From Chloroflexota bacterium (lineage in GTDB: Bacteria > Chloroflexota > Anaerolineae > DUEN01): 64,000 bases of DNA. How positions within the stretch are numbered: position 1 is the stretch's first letter; each line of letters starts with the position of its first letter. The stretch covers positions 5,034-69,033 of the forward strand of contig JAADGJ010000061.1 of assembly GCA_013152435.1 (NCBI GenBank). The letters are read 5' to 3'. Below are positions 22,177 through 27,839 of this stretch, piece after piece. Under the pieces are notes generated by a model. That model was not told where the DNA came from, made no database searches, and saw nothing but the letters and a program-made list of their open reading frames with translations. The position numbers and the translations under genes were made by a program.

Positions 22177-22965
22177 TCAGCGCATCTCCTGTCCGCCCGT
22201 CACGTTGATCGCCTGTCCCGTCATGTAGGATGCCTGATCGGAGGCCAGGAAGACGACTACATTGCACACATCCTCGTAGGTGCAGGCGCGGCCCAGCGGC
22301 ACCTGTTCCTCATACCGACGGCGCACCTCCTCCGGCGTGATGCCCCAGCGCTTGGCGTATTGCTCGTACAGGCTCTCCTTCCATAAGGGGGAGTCCAGCA
22401 GGTTGCCGGGACAGACAGCGTTCACTCGCACGTTGTACGGGGCCAATTCCAGCGCGATGCTCTGGGTGAGCCCGATGCCGCCGAACTTGGACGCTGCGTA
22501 AGCCGAGTTGCGGAAGCTCCCCTTCTTCCCCGACTTGGAGTTGATCTGGATGATGACGCCGCTGCGCTGCTCCTTCATGATCTTAGCGGCCGCACGAGCG
22601 GACAGGAAGTAGCCGACCAGGTTGACCTCGATCACCTTGCGCCAGTGGTCCACCGGGATCTCGGTCAGCTCGCCGGAGATCACGATGCCCGCGTTGGCCA
22701 CCAGGATATCCAGCCTGCCGAAGGCCTCCACGGCCTTTGCCGCGACGGCCTCCGTCTGTTCCTCCACGGTGACGTCACAATACAAAGGAAGCGTGCGGCG
22801 CCCGGTCTCCTCCGCGATGGCGGCAGCCGCCGCCTCCACGCCCTCCTGGTTGATATCGGTCATGATCACGTGGGCTCCCTCTTGGGCCAGCCGGCGGCTG
22901 ATGGCCTCGCCCAGCCCTCGGGCTGCCCCAGTCACCCAGGCGATTCGGTCCGGCAGCACGTTCAT
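22177..22965 (-). CDS. short-chain dehydrogenase/reductase (SDR) family oxidoreductase
   Basis: TGAARGLG cofactor motif and the YxxxK catalytic pair (YAASK). A 4-nt overlap with the upstream dehydrogenase gene suggests an operon. Confidence 0.8.
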   Translation of the reverse strand: MNVLPDRIAWVTGAARGLGEAISRRLAQEGAHVIMTDINQEGVEAAAAAIAEETGRRTLPLYCDVTVEEQTEAVAAKAVEAFGRLDILVANAGIVISGELTEIPVDHWRKVIEVNLVGYFLSARAAAKIMKEQRSGVIIQINSKSGKKGSFRNSAYAASKFGGIGLTQSIALELAPYNVRVNAVCPGNLLDSPLWKESLYEQYAKRWGITPEEVRRRYEEQVPLGRACTYEDVCNVVVFLASDQASYMTGQAINVTGGQEMR

Positions 22966-24722
22966 GGTAGCAACGCCTCCAGGAAAGCGATCTCCGCCGC
23001 CCGCGTCCAGGTGCGGCCGCCGTCCTCCAGGTGTCTGGCGACCTCCGGCAGCTTTTCACCCAGCTCGCTCAATGGCGTCAACGGGAAATCCAGGATCTGC
23101 GGATACACCACGATCTTCCCTGGGAACCGGCCCTCAGCCACGGCCCGTAGCCCTTCCTTTACGGCGCGCAGCCCCGCCACCGCGGCCACGGAGCCGTTAG
23201 GGCTGAGCTGGCCGTTGGCCGCCTTCTCCATGACCCGGCGCATGTCGGCGATGGTGGACCCGCTGGACCCGATGTAGCGCACGCCGCGCTGGATGATGGC
23301 GTTGACGTCCAGGTGGGCCAGCGTGCCCCGCGGCAGCCCCGCGAACAGGTTCACGACGGCCCCATCCGCCGCGAGCGCCGTCAGGGCTGTCAATCCCTCC
23401 GCCGACGCGGCGCAGATGATCACATCATCAAAGCCGTGCCCTTCCGTGAGGGCGTCCATCTCCTCGGCGAAGGCTTCCGGCGTGAAGTTCCCCTGAGAGC
23501 GGGTGAACAGCTTCACGCCCTGACGCTGCGCCAGGTTCTTGAATTTGGCGGCCAGCTCCTGGATCCGAGGCGAGCGCAGATTGGTGGCGACGACGATGGA
23601 TGGCCGCTCGGGAAGCTGGATCGCCCGCTGGACGTGCATGTGCCCCATGGGGCCCGCGGCTCCCACGAAGAGCGCACAGCCGCCCGGCTTCAGCTCGGAG
23701 CGGATGGGCTGGTATGAGGCGGCGATGTCCGGCCCCGGCGATCCCACGAAGGTCGTGTGATCGTAGTGCAGGCGGCCCACATCCAAGGCCACCGGCCGCT
23801 CGATGGGCGCTGGGGAGACGATGTTCAGGATGCCGCCGTGGGCCAGATGGCGACTGGCCGCCTCGATGACCTCCGGCGCGATGGGCCCCAGGATGACGAT
23901 ATCGTCGAACCCGGCGTCCCCGGTGTGCTCTCGGGCTCGCTCGTACTCCTCCGGTGACAGCCCGTCCAGCGTGACCACTTCGATGCCCAGGGCCTCCGCC
24001 CGGGCCGTCAGCTCGTCGCGCAGGGCGGCCGGCACGTCGCTCAGCACGATCCGGGCGGGGTGCGCATCCGCGTCCAGGCCGCGGCTGATCGTATAAGTCG
24101 GCCCGTCTACCCCACCGCCCAGGAACCAGGCGATGCCATCCGGCTTCAGCCCCGTGCGGTATTCGATCACATACGCGGCCTCCACACAAGCCCACGGCTC
24201 CGTCAAGGCGGCCTCGCTATAGCCGAGCGATTCCGGCATCGGCAGCAGGTAGCAGCCCTCATCCCCGTGCAGGATCTCCTCGCCCACCAGCGCGTATTGC
24301 GAATAGCCCCCCTGGAGGCGGTACCCATAAGCCATCCCCCGGCCCTTGTAGTAGATGTCCGCCTGCACGGCGAAGCGATCACCGATATGGTATTGATCGC
24401 GCAGGTGCTCGCCCACGCCGACCACGGTCAGCGCGACCTCATGGCCCATCACGACCGGCTGTTTCTCCAGGTCACGGCCGACGAGGCGAGGGTGGCTGCC
24501 CCCCTGGCGGATGATCTTGATGTCGGAGAAGCAGATGCCCACCGCGTCGTGGCGGACCAGCAATTGGTCTGGCCCGGGTTGAGGGACCGGGGCCTGGATC
24601 GGCTGCCCGTCCCGCCCCAGCCGTTCGAAGCCCGCGCCGTAGAGGGGCCACAGCCACTGCCGCCCGGGGATCGGCCCCTGTCCCGAGCGGTAGTGCTCCC
24701 ATTTGCCTTGCTTTGCCATCAT
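22962..24722 (-). CDS. two-domain medium-chain (Zn-dependent alcohol dehydrogenase-like) dehydrogenase, 586 aa
   Basis: N-terminal GroES-like plus Rossmann MDR core (GICFSDIKI..., GHEVALTVVGVG). A second nucleotide-binding-like region (FVGAAGPMGHMH) is fused at the C-terminus. Confidence 0.6.
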   Translation of the reverse strand: MMAKQGKWEHYRSGQGPIPGRQWLWPLYGAGFERLGRDGQPIQAPVPQPGPDQLLVRHDAVGICFSDIKIIRQGGSHPRLVGRDLEKQPVVMGHEVALTVVGVGEHLRDQYHIGDRFAVQADIYYKGRGMAYGYRLQGGYSQYALVGEEILHGDEGCYLLPMPESLGYSEAALTEPWACVEAAYVIEYRTGLKPDGIAWFLGGGVDGPTYTISRGLDADAHPARIVLSDVPAALRDELTARAEALGIEVVTLDGLSPEEYERAREHTGDAGFDDIVILGPIAPEVIEAASRHLAHGGILNIVSPAPIERPVALDVGRLHYDHTTFVGSPGPDIAASYQPIRSELKPGGCALFVGAAGPMGHMHVQRAIQLPERPSIVVATNLRSPRIQELAAKFKNLAQRQGVKLFTRSQGNFTPEAFAEEMDALTEGHGFDDVIICAASAEGLTALTALAADGAVVNLFAGLPRGTLAHLDVNAIIQRGVRYIGSSGSTIADMRRVMEKAANGQLSPNGSVAAVAGLRAVKEGLRAVAEGRFPGKIVVYPQILDFPLTPLSELGEKLPEVARHLEDGGRTWTRAAEIAFLEALLP

Positions 24723-24765
24723 TCCCTCATCCTTCGTCTTCCGTCTCTCGCCCTTCGGCTGTCGT

Positions 24766-26578: not shown

Positions 26579-26588
26579 ATCGAATGCC

Positions 26589-27839
26589 TCACGCGCCGGG
26601 GTAGCCGCCGGAGGAGCCTTCGCCCGTGCCGCGCTCGCGAGCGATCTTCTCCTCGTAGCCGGAGGCGCGATGGGCGGCGATGGGATCCGGCTCCAGCCCC
26701 ATCTCCACGCGCACCTGGGCCAGCAGCGGGCGCACGTCGGTCTCGTAGGCCTGAGCCAGGATCTCATGCGCGCCCAGGACGTCGCCCTCCATCTGGGCCT
26801 GGGCCAGCGCCTCCCGATCGACCAGCAGCGCCTTGGCATAGGCCGTCTGCACGTTCATCACGGACAGGATCATGGCCTCGATCTTGGATTCGATGTTGTG
26901 CGACTGGTCGATCATGTAGGCCACATTGCGGGCGCACTCGGACACGGTGGGATCGGGGTCCTGCTCGGCCGCGATCAGCTCGTTGAAGATGAGGAACAGC
27001 TCGAAGGGGTTGACGGTGCCGACGATCAGGTCGTCGTCGGCGTACTTGCGGGCGTTGAAGTGGAACCCGCCCAGCCGGCCCTCGTCCAGCAGCAACGCCA
27101 CGATGTGTTCGACGTTGGTCCCCTGGGGGTGATGGCCGGTGTCGACCAGGACCTGCGCCTGGGGGCCGAGCTTCAGGGCCATCATGTAGGAGGTGCCCCA
27201 GTCGGGCAGGTCGGTGTGGTAGAAGGCGGGCTCGAAGAACTTGTACTCGATCAGCATGCGCATATCGGGCGGCATCGCCGCGTACACCTCCGCCAGGGCC
27301 TCCTCCATGCGGTCCTTCCGGGCCCGGAAGGAGTCCTGTCCGGCGTAGTTGGTGCCGTCGGCGAACCAGAGGCTGATGATCTCGGACCCCACGGCCTTGG
27401 CGATCTCGACGCATTCCAGCATGTGGGCGACGGCCTGCTTGCGCACGTCGGGATCCGGGTTGCAGATGGAGCCGAGTTTGTAGATGTCGTCCTGGAAGAC
27501 GTTGGGGTTCACTGCTCCGATCTTGACCCCCAGGGAGTCGGCATAGGAGATGACCTGGCCCCAGTCGTCCACCTTATCCCAGGGGATGTGGACGGCCACG
27601 GTGGGGCAGATGCCCGTCAGCCGATGGACGTGGGCGGCGTCCTCCAGCTTCTCCCACAGGTTGCGGGCCGCGCCTGGCCACGGGAACACCTTGAAGCGTG
27701 TGCCGGAGTTGCCATATCCCCACGAGGGGGTCTCCACACGCTGCGCCTTCAGGGCCGCCTTCACGGCCTCTACGTCAACGCCGCGATCTGCCAGTTGTTC
27801 GGCCAGGAGAGGATAGGCCTTCAGGTAGTCTGTGGACAT
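26589..27839 (-). CDS. rhaA: L-rhamnose isomerase (actinobacterial/Bacillus-type, TIM barrel)
   Basis: [14 protein letters not shown] motif and xylose-isomerase-like TIM-barrel architecture. First gene of the minus-strand sugar operon. RBS GGAGG. Confidence 0.55.

Follow-up and report, generated by a model that had tools for sequence, protein, structure and literature searches.

How does an operon that appears to be built for L-rhamnose make use of a second, unusually large dehydrogenase and an additional barrel enzyme, and how can it proceed with no kinase among its genes? The question is raised by five genes in a 64,000-nucleotide (nt) stretch of the genome of a Chloroflexota bacterium (Bacteria; Chloroflexota; Anaerolineae; DUEN01; GenBank assembly GCA_013152435.1, contig JAADGJ010000061.1, positions 5,034 to 69,033 of the forward strand), hereafter the window, whose own numbering is used below. 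On the minus strand between positions 27839 and 22177, an original prediction had recognised an L-rhamnose-type catabolic operon encoding a rhaA-like isomerase, a RhaD-like class II aldolase, a xylose-isomerase-like TIM-barrel protein (the TIM protein), a 586-aa zinc-dependent medium-chain dehydrogenase/reductase (MDR) with a second Rossmann-like domain, and a short-chain dehydrogenase/reductase (SDR), had noted the lack of kinase and mutarotase, and had proposed a variant pathway. All five open reading frames (ORFs) are present as predicted, with two starts corrected from reading of the junctions, and they form a compact operon with internal spacers of 10, 22 and 43 nt and an overlap of the MDR stop and SDR start codons (ATGA) of the kind associated with translational coupling. 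The locus is the Caldilineae/Anaerolineae version of a phosphorylative operon for the catabolism of L-rhamnose, a 6-deoxyhexose, and is indeed a variant, in that the cluster differs from the canonical rhaBADM set. Its gene content, protein families, domain duplication, conserved gene order and link to rhamnose can all be read directly from the window and its relatives, as described below.

The link to rhamnose begins with the isomerase, which scores 628.6 bits against TIGR02635, the RhaI equivalog model (cut-off 531.35), with residues 24–403 covering profile positions 2–377 of 378, and matches the L-rhamnose isomerase structure of Pseudomonas stutzeri (2hcv) with 393 bits (E = 1.4e-116, residues 8–415). 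The models of E. coli-type RhaA, TIGR01748 and NF002203, give only 29–34 bits and are not passed (cut-offs 572–585). PF06134, which it had been proposed to set against other isomerase families, matches weakly at 31.5 bits, above the Pfam gathering score of 22 and consistent with a remote kinship to E. coli RhaA. On these profile matches the protein is assigned as an L-rhamnose isomerase of the RhaI (P. stutzeri) type, and the resemblance to RhaA given in the original prediction needs qualifying as distant.

The same link recurs around related MDR genes. We collected 80 genome loci centred on MDR homologues, almost all from metagenome-assembled genomes (MAGs) of Anaerolineae and Caldilineae, and clustered their ORFs; partner counts are given over 85 loci, namely these 80, the window and four additional loci, two of them already among the 80. 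The SDR is the commonest partner (74 loci), followed by a RhaE-like aldolase (45), a 451-aa PHP-like protein (42), an MtlD-like dehydrogenase (31), a fused E1 alpha-beta protein (29), an E2 protein and a DeoR regulator (25 each), RhaI (22), an FGGY kinase (17), a PfkB kinase resembling 1-phosphofructokinase (15), RhaA (13), the TIM protein (10), and a RhaD-like aldolase and a DUF89 phosphatase (9 each). Where the flanks were fully covered (38 loci), the SDR was found in 34, an aldolase or the PHP-like protein in 35 and E1/E2 in 20. The RhaA of these loci is a true RhaA (688 bits), the FGGY kinases score 472–502 bits on the rhamnulokinase model, the highest falling just under its cut-off of 528, homologues of the mutarotase RhaM occur in six loci (L013, L019, L024, L035, L049 and L084, found with an E. 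coli query sequence), and RhaPQ-like ABC transporter genes are also present. Together with the isomerase, these neighbours bear out the assignment of the window operon to L-rhamnose.

The original prediction had listed the lack of a kinase among the features of the operon. Within the 64 kb, tblastn with the FGGY, PfkB, E1/E2, MtlD-like, PHP-like and DUF89 proteins of the related loci found no homologue and a search for RhaM found no match (with an E. coli query sequence), so that the reported absence of kinase and mutarotase from the window holds; nor does a kinase adjoin the operon in the close relatives L002 and L005–L007. However, in L168 and L117 the genes for a LacI regulator, RhaI, an FGGY kinase, the aldolase, the MDR, the SDR and the TIM protein form a single tight operon with gaps of 15–35 nt. 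Because RhaI, kinase and the remaining enzymes are encoded there as one unit, the kinase appears to be part of the pathway and its absence to be a local feature of the operon in the lineage studied here. The empty neighbourhoods of the window and its closest relatives would also be explained by a kinase-independent variant, with the aldolase and dehydrogenases acting on unphosphorylated rhamnulose and its products, but we consider this very improbable. Class II aldolases of this fold are known to use phosphorylated donors, and the aldolase of the window carries GNTS, SG and PSVE at the positions of the phosphate site; more distant relatives hold a kinase within the same operon, and the closest characterised relatives of the SDR, the MDR and the TIM protein all act on sugar phosphates.

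Downstream of isomerisation and phosphorylation, the distinctive part of the operon is a set of four genes. The five-gene order of the window recurs in L002, L005, L006 and L007 and partly in L091 and L092, and among 83 loci centred on the TIM protein the commonest arrangement is aldolase, MDR, SDR, TIM. These four stand alone among housekeeping genes in L088 and L089, and the MDR and SDR are fused into single proteins in P0045, P0069 and L089. We regard the four genes as a unit because of this prevalence, the stand-alone occurrences, the fusions and the ATGA overlap in the window, and their status as a conserved module is well supported in Chloroflexota and extends to MAGs labelled Armatimonadota and other phyla. 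A low-GC variant (L144, L147, L158 and L163) has the order DeoR, E1, E2, MDR, SDR, TIM, followed by a FucA-like aldolase, with RhaI nearby.

Several clusters show elaborations of this plan. Two MDR paralogues of ~585 aa lie in tandem or close together in L001/L011 (8289–11752) and also in L013 and L057, which suggests diversified substrate or stereospecificity. In many Anaerolineae clusters a protein of 450–451 aa (U451; L003 5007–6362, L001 6802–8160 and some 40 others) lies between aldolase and MDR, in the place held in the window by the TIM protein; it occurs with or without the aldolase, is absent from the window, and has a weak PHP (metal phosphoesterase) signature with the motifs HxH, DFD, GTEMN and YGH and no NCBIfam match. 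The fused E1 alpha-beta protein (683–794 aa) and its E2 (L003 19374–21425, L001 16228–19712, L147 2543–5915) occur in roughly every second Anaerolineae locus whose flanks were fully covered, as well as in the unrelated low-GC variant, with no E3 gene adjacent.

The MDR is the most unusual member of the module. Its ADH_N domain (PF08240) lies at residues 50–150 and its ADH_zinc_N domain (PF00107) at 417–502, and hhalign aligns residues 186–340 with 341–515 (probability 99.9, E = 2.8e-31), so that the predicted second Rossmann-like domain proves to be an internal duplication, the first copy of which is degenerate and has lost its glycine motif. Residues C64, H94, E95 and E175 are invariant in 62 homologues and form a Cys-His-Glu-Glu zinc site as in polyol dehydrogenases; no Cys4 structural-zinc loop was seen on reading the sequence. 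An AlphaFold (AF2) model (mean predicted confidence, pLDDT, 94) matched only ordinary MDRs of ~340 aa in the Protein Data Bank (PDB), at a TM-score of ~0.45 normalised to the query, and no structure there has the architecture with a duplicated cofactor domain. Following the second beta-strand is a loop that reads ATNLRSPR, without an acidic residue, which suggests NADP(H) as cofactor; little weight is given to this, because an NAD-type Asp stands at that position in the related MDR of L147, which has a single cofactor domain. A homology of the inserted domain to the linker region of the bifunctional aldolase/SDR protein RhaEW was considered and rejected, none being found.

When the MDR was compared with annotated plasmids by tblastn, the best match was a 564-aa Deinococcus protein (38% identity), followed by E. 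coli YggP (30%) and SorE of Klebsiella, Serratia and Citrobacter (25–27%), aligned over ~90% of its length. Apart from the Deinococcus homologue, only YggP and SorE among the plasmid-encoded matches span this much of the protein, generic zinc dehydrogenases covering ~50%. In BLASTP, SorE of K. pneumoniae aligns in two pieces (26% and 28% identity, E = 1e-21 and 1e-19). In the low-GC variant (L147, L163) the MDR that occupies the corresponding position has a single cofactor domain and aligns end to end with Klebsiella SorE at 46% identity (E = 1e-137). By these alignments, the closest named relatives of the window MDR would be SorE, an L-sorbose-1-phosphate reductase, and YggP. The latter, an uncharacterised zinc dehydrogenase (e.g. 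NZ_CP137739.1 70358–71536), is the closest enterobacterial relative, and its alignment skips the inserted domain. The Deinococcus protein is encoded on plasmid p380k of the cultured Deinococcus sp. AJ005 (L171, 11213–15967) beside an SDR, an FGGY kinase and a GntR regulator, with an AGE-family isomerase, a class I mannose-6-phosphate isomerase, a ROK protein and an ABC transporter as divergent neighbours; this cluster contains no aldolase, TIM protein or rhamnose genes, and could make the MDR family accessible to experiment.

The SDR scores 356.8 bits against the sorbitol-6-phosphate 2-dehydrogenase model NF009050 (equivalog cut-off 307), and its best structure is SrlD (5o3z, 227.6 bits; next structure 164); in the low-GC variant the SDR reaches 404 bits on the SrlD model. 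Its matches to models of the RhaEW group (184–192 bits) are below their cut-offs, and it is 33% identical to the RhaW-type domain of a rhizobial bifunctional protein, a domain which itself has no SrlD match among its 60 best structures. RhaW likewise shares only 22% of its residues with SrlD of E. coli (Rodionova et al. 2013, PMC3870299). The idea that aldolase and SDR represent a split RhaEW was therefore rejected for the SDR, RhaEW being kept only as the nearest relative of the aldolase, and the SDR is placed by its profile matches in the SrlD family and not as a RhaW orthologue. The gene context, with rhamnose genes and no gut/srl phosphotransferase system (PTS), argues for a substrate related to but different from D-sorbitol-6-phosphate, probably another polyol phosphate.

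An MDR and an SDR are likewise encoded together in the sor operon of Klebsiella, as SorE and a glucitol-6-phosphate dehydrogenase. The window differs from that system in having no PTS, in the extra degenerate cofactor domain of an MDR that is 26–30% identical to SorE and YggP, in an SDR that is nearer to SrlD (227 bits) than to the SDR of the sor operon (32% identity), in the addition of isomerase, aldolase and TIM protein, and in its presumed substrate, a 6-deoxy sugar phosphate. A shikimate-dehydrogenase-like gene follows sorE in the Klebsiella operon (L172, 8163–8972) and a 30%-identical one occurs in L003 (17012–17878), which may be coincidence or a further shared dehydrogenase.

The TIM protein belongs to PF01261 (E = 2.8e-15, 57 bits), and its best solved relative is Brucella EryC (4k3z, E = 1e-22, residues 7–275), reportedly a tetrulose-phosphate racemase. 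EryC, a tetrulose-4-phosphate racemase/erythrulose-1-phosphate 3-epimerase of erythritol catabolism, shares the PF01261 fold; the similarity is however remote, there is no equivalog match, and the window locus has no erythritol genes. The sole NCBIfam match is to D-psicose 3-epimerase (E = 0.0012). Homologues 60–67% identical are found across phyla, in MAGs labelled Anaerolineae, Armatimonadota, Chthonomonadaceae and WOR-3, and the JGI annotation calls some of them D-erythrulose 1-phosphate 3-epimerase.

Every substrate and product in the following scheme we infer. The sigma-70-like promoter would drive the five translationally close genes; RhaI would convert L-rhamnose to L-rhamnulose, and a kinase encoded elsewhere in the genome (in other lineages, the rhamnulokinase-like FGGY protein of the same operon) would produce L-rhamnulose-1-phosphate. 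MDR and then SDR would take the sugar phosphate through steps like those of SorE and glucitol-6-phosphate dehydrogenase in the breakdown of L-sorbose, the MDR reducing the C2 keto group of the 6-deoxy-ketose-1-phosphate to give a 6-deoxyhexitol phosphate and the SDR oxidising the carbon adjoining the methyl end to give a 1-deoxy-ketohexose-6-phosphate, while the TIM protein would set the configuration as a 3-epimerase. The aldolase could split the ketose-1-phosphate into dihydroxyacetone phosphate (DHAP) and L-lactaldehyde, thereby also providing for inversion at C4, or could alternatively cleave the 1-deoxy-ketose-6-phosphate into hydroxyacetone and glyceraldehyde-3-phosphate. In the many related loci that encode them, the thiamine-dependent E1/E2 would convert the methyl-ketol to acetyl-CoA and a tetrose-4-phosphate. 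That the MDR and SDR shift the carbonyl of a 6-deoxy-ketose-1-phosphate to yield a 1-deoxy-ketohexose-6-phosphate, with the TIM protein as 3-epimerase, is in our judgement plausible, if somewhat short of probable.

Sugar phosphates are favoured as substrates because the closest characterised relatives of the coupled and sometimes fused MDR and SDR form a consecutive pair, a ketose-1-phosphate reductase and a hexitol-phosphate dehydrogenase. Sugar phosphates are also handled by the nearest characterised relatives of the TIM protein and, in the related loci, of the MtlD-like, PfkB-type and DUF89 proteins. With L-rhamnulose-1-phosphate or L-fuculose-1-phosphate as the starting compound, such chemistry would end in a 1-deoxy-ketohexose-6-phosphate. 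Stereochemistry worked by hand agrees: L-fuculose-1-phosphate epimerised at C3 is 6-deoxy-L-sorbose-1-phosphate, the 6-deoxy analogue of the SorE substrate, and its reduction at C2 followed by oxidation next to the methyl group would give 1-deoxy-D-fructose-6-phosphate, which on removal of an acetyl unit would leave D-erythrose-4-phosphate. In E. coli, aldolases acting on 1-deoxyfructose-6-phosphate are believed to be the transaldolase-like class I enzymes FsaA and FsaB, whereas the aldolase of the window has the class II FucA fold. The compound is a known catabolic intermediate there, formed from anhydro-sugar phosphates by radical chemistry (the glycyl radical isomerases YbiW/PflD) and cleaved by aldolases to glyceraldehyde-3-phosphate and hydroxyacetone (PMC13450708); the two systems thus share a kind of intermediate and differ in its origin. 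A likeness to E1/E2 of the acetoin dehydrogenase type is confined to the related loci (fused E1 alpha-beta and E2, including L147) and absent from the window. Enzymes of that type convert a methyl-ketol to acetyl-CoA and an aldehyde.

Taken as a whole, the scheme would amount to a new route for 6-deoxyhexoses (L-rhamnose and probably L-fucose), in which the ketose-1-phosphate is epimerised, reduced, re-oxidised and then cleaved to hydroxyacetone and glyceraldehyde-3-phosphate or, with E1/E2, to acetyl-CoA and erythrose-4-phosphate, instead of simply being split to DHAP and the toxic L-lactaldehyde. All six carbons would in that case reach central metabolism, bypassing lactaldehyde and propanediol. 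We propose this complete route more tentatively than the carbonyl shift at its centre, as a possibility.

It is also conceivable, if unlikely, that the module is not specific for 6-deoxy sugars at all. An ordinary ketohexose-1-phosphate would then pass through a hexitol phosphate and an epimerisation to fructose-6-phosphate, in a PTS-free route of the sorbose type, fed for example by L-mannose/L-fructose, L-sorbose or another rare sugar taken by a broad-range RhaI. The homology of MDR and SDR to SorE and SrlD would suit such a route, as would the acceptance of many aldoses by P. stutzeri-type RhaI enzymes, the Deinococcus cluster, where SDR, MDR and FGGY kinase accompany an AGE-family isomerase and a mannose-6-phosphate isomerase in place of rhamnose genes, the 1-phosphofructokinase-like kinase of some clusters, and the many modules that stand alone with no isomerase or kinase nearby. 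However, the module shares its clusters with true RhaA, with rhamnulokinase-like kinases and with RhaM, a mutarotase specific for rhamnose; among the natural substrates of these isomerases only L-rhamnose is known to be abundant, and in such a route the aldolase and E1/E2 would be superfluous.

The aldolase is harder to accommodate. Its best NCBIfam matches are to the N-terminal 200 positions of models of the bifunctional aldolase/SDR RhaEW (85 bits), far below the cut-offs of 568–1014 (TIGR02632/NF006190 group), and it is 30% identical to the aldolase half of the rhizobial bifunctional protein. Its sequence contains PSVE, with the catalytic Glu, and the zinc histidines in HTH and NHG; the top 120 homologues, 65–70% identical, are all stand-alone. 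The class II aldolase of the original prediction is thus confirmed, with the amendment that its closest characterised relative would be, from these matches, the RhaE domain of RhaEW. Because Glu in the PSxE motif is typical of true aldolases and Asp of 4-epimerases, the presence of PSVE in the window and of PSSE in the FucA-like protein of L147 led us to reject an AraD/UlaF-like 4-epimerase paired with a UlaE-like TIM protein, leaving 4-epimerisation as a possible side activity. Matches to a class II aldolase of Sinorhizobium meliloti pSymB were uninformative, lying in an autoinducer-2 (lsr) locus.

RhaEW combines aldolase and SDR in one protein of ~680 aa. The RhaI/RhaA–RhaB–RhaEW pathway (Rodionova et al. 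2013, PMC3870299) resembles the window in its RhaI-type isomerase and RhaE-related aldolase, and the related loci add rhamnulokinase, RhaM, DeoR/LacI regulators and RhaPQ-like ABC genes to the likeness; the window differs in that its aldolase stands alone, its SDR is no RhaW orthologue, it has in addition an MDR related to SorE and a TIM protein resembling EryC, and no kinase is present. That study covers Chloroflexales and not Anaerolineae or Caldilineae, and the aldolase–MDR–SDR–TIM module is unmentioned in it.

This kinship gives some weight to the main rival reading, in which the pathway is classical up to the aldolase and only its lactaldehyde branch is new. DHAP and L-lactaldehyde would be released, the SDR (RhaW-like) and MDR would oxidise L-lactaldehyde via L-lactate to pyruvate, and E1/E2, where present, would carry pyruvate to acetyl-CoA. 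An SDR fused to the aldolase in RhaEW can oxidise lactaldehyde to lactate (PMC3870299). The clusters contain no other lactaldehyde enzyme, the near-constant aldolase is the main strength of this reading, and in L017, L020, L023 and L026 the gene immediately upstream of MDR and SDR encodes, in place of the RhaE-like aldolase, a RhaD-like one that scores 151 bits on the RhaD model. The E1/E2 proteins score best on pyruvate dehydrogenase models, below the equivalog cut-offs except for one beta-subunit subfamily model. An L-lactate dehydrogenase gene adjoins the cluster in L163, but was set aside as support since it does so in that locus only. The original prediction had suggested reduction or oxidation of lactaldehyde by the MDR and SDR, and this sits poorly with their families: the SDR is of the SrlD type, from which RhaW is remote as described above, and the MDR has the zinc site of polyol dehydrogenases and is related to SorE and YggP. 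We know of no MDR-type lactate dehydrogenase, and the TIM protein, the MtlD-like dehydrogenase, the 1-phosphofructokinase-like kinase and the phosphatases would have no role. We therefore consider a lactaldehyde branch rather unlikely, and less so than a route for non-deoxy sugars.

The sugar-phosphate scheme that we prefer has its own difficulties, of which the aldolase is the chief. A true class II enzyme with the Glu of PSxE is almost always present, and in four loci a RhaD-like one takes the same position; this constancy and replacement fit more simply with enzymes acting after the classical cleavage, and we know of no DHAP-dependent class II aldolase that uses hydroxyacetone as donor. The window operon and L168 have no E1/E2, so that exit from the 1-deoxy-ketose-6-phosphate would require the aldolase or an enzyme encoded elsewhere, and the kinase that the scheme requires was not found for this genome in the 64 kb searched. 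Identity of the MDR to SorE and YggP is only 26–30%, and its NCBIfam matches include neither a naming model nor a SorE model. Literature searches on the module, rhamnitol phosphate and 6-deoxysorbose returned nothing relevant besides the review of 1-deoxyfructose-6-phosphate. Finally, the loci come mostly from one class, and some of their synteny may therefore be inherited and not selected.

Coordinates of the operon, its putative promoter and the gene downstream (window numbering)
Feature	Coordinates	Strand	Evidence
Sigma-70-like promoter, TTGACT-17-TATAAT, ~280 nt upstream of the isomerase start	28121..28149	-	11/12 consensus
RhaI-type L-rhamnose isomerase, 416 aa	26589..27839	-	TIGR02635 628.6 bits
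Stand-alone class II (FucA/RhaD-fold) aldolase, 259 aa	25799..26578	-	PF00596 9.7e-20; start corrected
Xylose-isomerase-like TIM-barrel protein, 336 aa, candidate sugar-phosphate 3-epimerase	24766..25776	-	PF01261 2.8e-15
Zinc MDR with tandemly duplicated cofactor-binding domain (MDR585), 586 aa	22962..24722	-	ADH_N, ADH_zinc_N
SDR, sorbitol-6-phosphate 2-dehydrogenase (SrlD) family, 262 aa	22177..22965	-	NF009050 356.8 bits
Tetratricopeptide repeat (TPR) protein, 659 aa, directly downstream	20136..22115	-	TPR repeats

The source bacterium probably belongs to the Caldilineae, its best relatives being a Chloroflexota MAG (96% identity) and a Caldilineae MAG (87%). The near-consensus promoter lies on the same strand as the operon, and both of its hexamers and the adjacent GGGCGCGA are kept in L002, an 82%-identical relative in which the flanking sequence and the leader have diverged. 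An Rfam scan of the 280-nt leader found no family match and the leader is not kept in L002, so a riboswitch or other known RNA was rejected. Downstream, the TPR gene follows the SDR after a 61-nt gap with a ribosome-binding site, and the same gene lies 3' of the operon in L002; it is possibly co-transcribed, to judge from this spacing. Among 80 more distant loci it does not recur as a family, and its membership of the system is doubtful.

A family-1 sugar solute-binding protein (SBP) at the window start, mentioned in the original prediction, is real (PF01547) and lies 20 kb from the operon, with a peptide ABC transporter, SelD, a proton pyrophosphatase, Ndk, RNase PH and other unrelated genes in between; no evidence connects it with the operon. 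The divergent upstream neighbour (28266–29954, plus strand) encodes a 562-aa protein in which residues 35–240 match a UvdE UV-endonuclease domain, while ~300 further C-terminal residues are without a Pfam match. Beyond it on the plus strand (30776–42800), the translations read as an IclR regulator and then an ABC transporter of the oligopeptide type, comprising a family-5 SBP, two permeases and at least one ATPase; several ORFs of unassigned function come after the transporter genes (37773–42769). In translation, a 1142-aa ORF (43575–47003, plus strand) resembles a regulator that combines a winged-helix/BTAD N-terminus with a P-loop ATPase and TPR repeats. This ORF is situated within a stretch of low GC content (42–50 kb, 0.55–0.60 against ~0.65 elsewhere) and may have been acquired.

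L-rhamnose and L-fucose are major sugars of plant, algal and bacterial cell walls, and sludge, sediments and hot springs harbour Anaerolineae and Caldilineae as abundant degraders that are poorly represented in culture. The established routes lead to L-lactaldehyde, which is reduced to propanediol or oxidised by dedicated enzymes, and the clusters described here are without those enzymes. What is new is a variant of the phosphorylative rhamnose pathway containing a widespread, unassigned four-gene module, with thousands of database homologues and representatives in MAGs of several phyla, and an MDR architecture without a solved counterpart. If the favoured model is true, it would represent a new catabolic logic for deoxy sugars. 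It would also supply a function for the ~585-aa MDRs, a large family with thousands of homologues that is marked by the duplicated cofactor domain and now annotated as threonine, sorbitol or mannitol-phosphate dehydrogenases, and would correct the "sorbitol-6-phosphate dehydrogenase" names that have been propagated in annotation. If instead the enzymes act on lactaldehyde, the module would still be new, as a non-orthologous branch from lactaldehyde to pyruvate.

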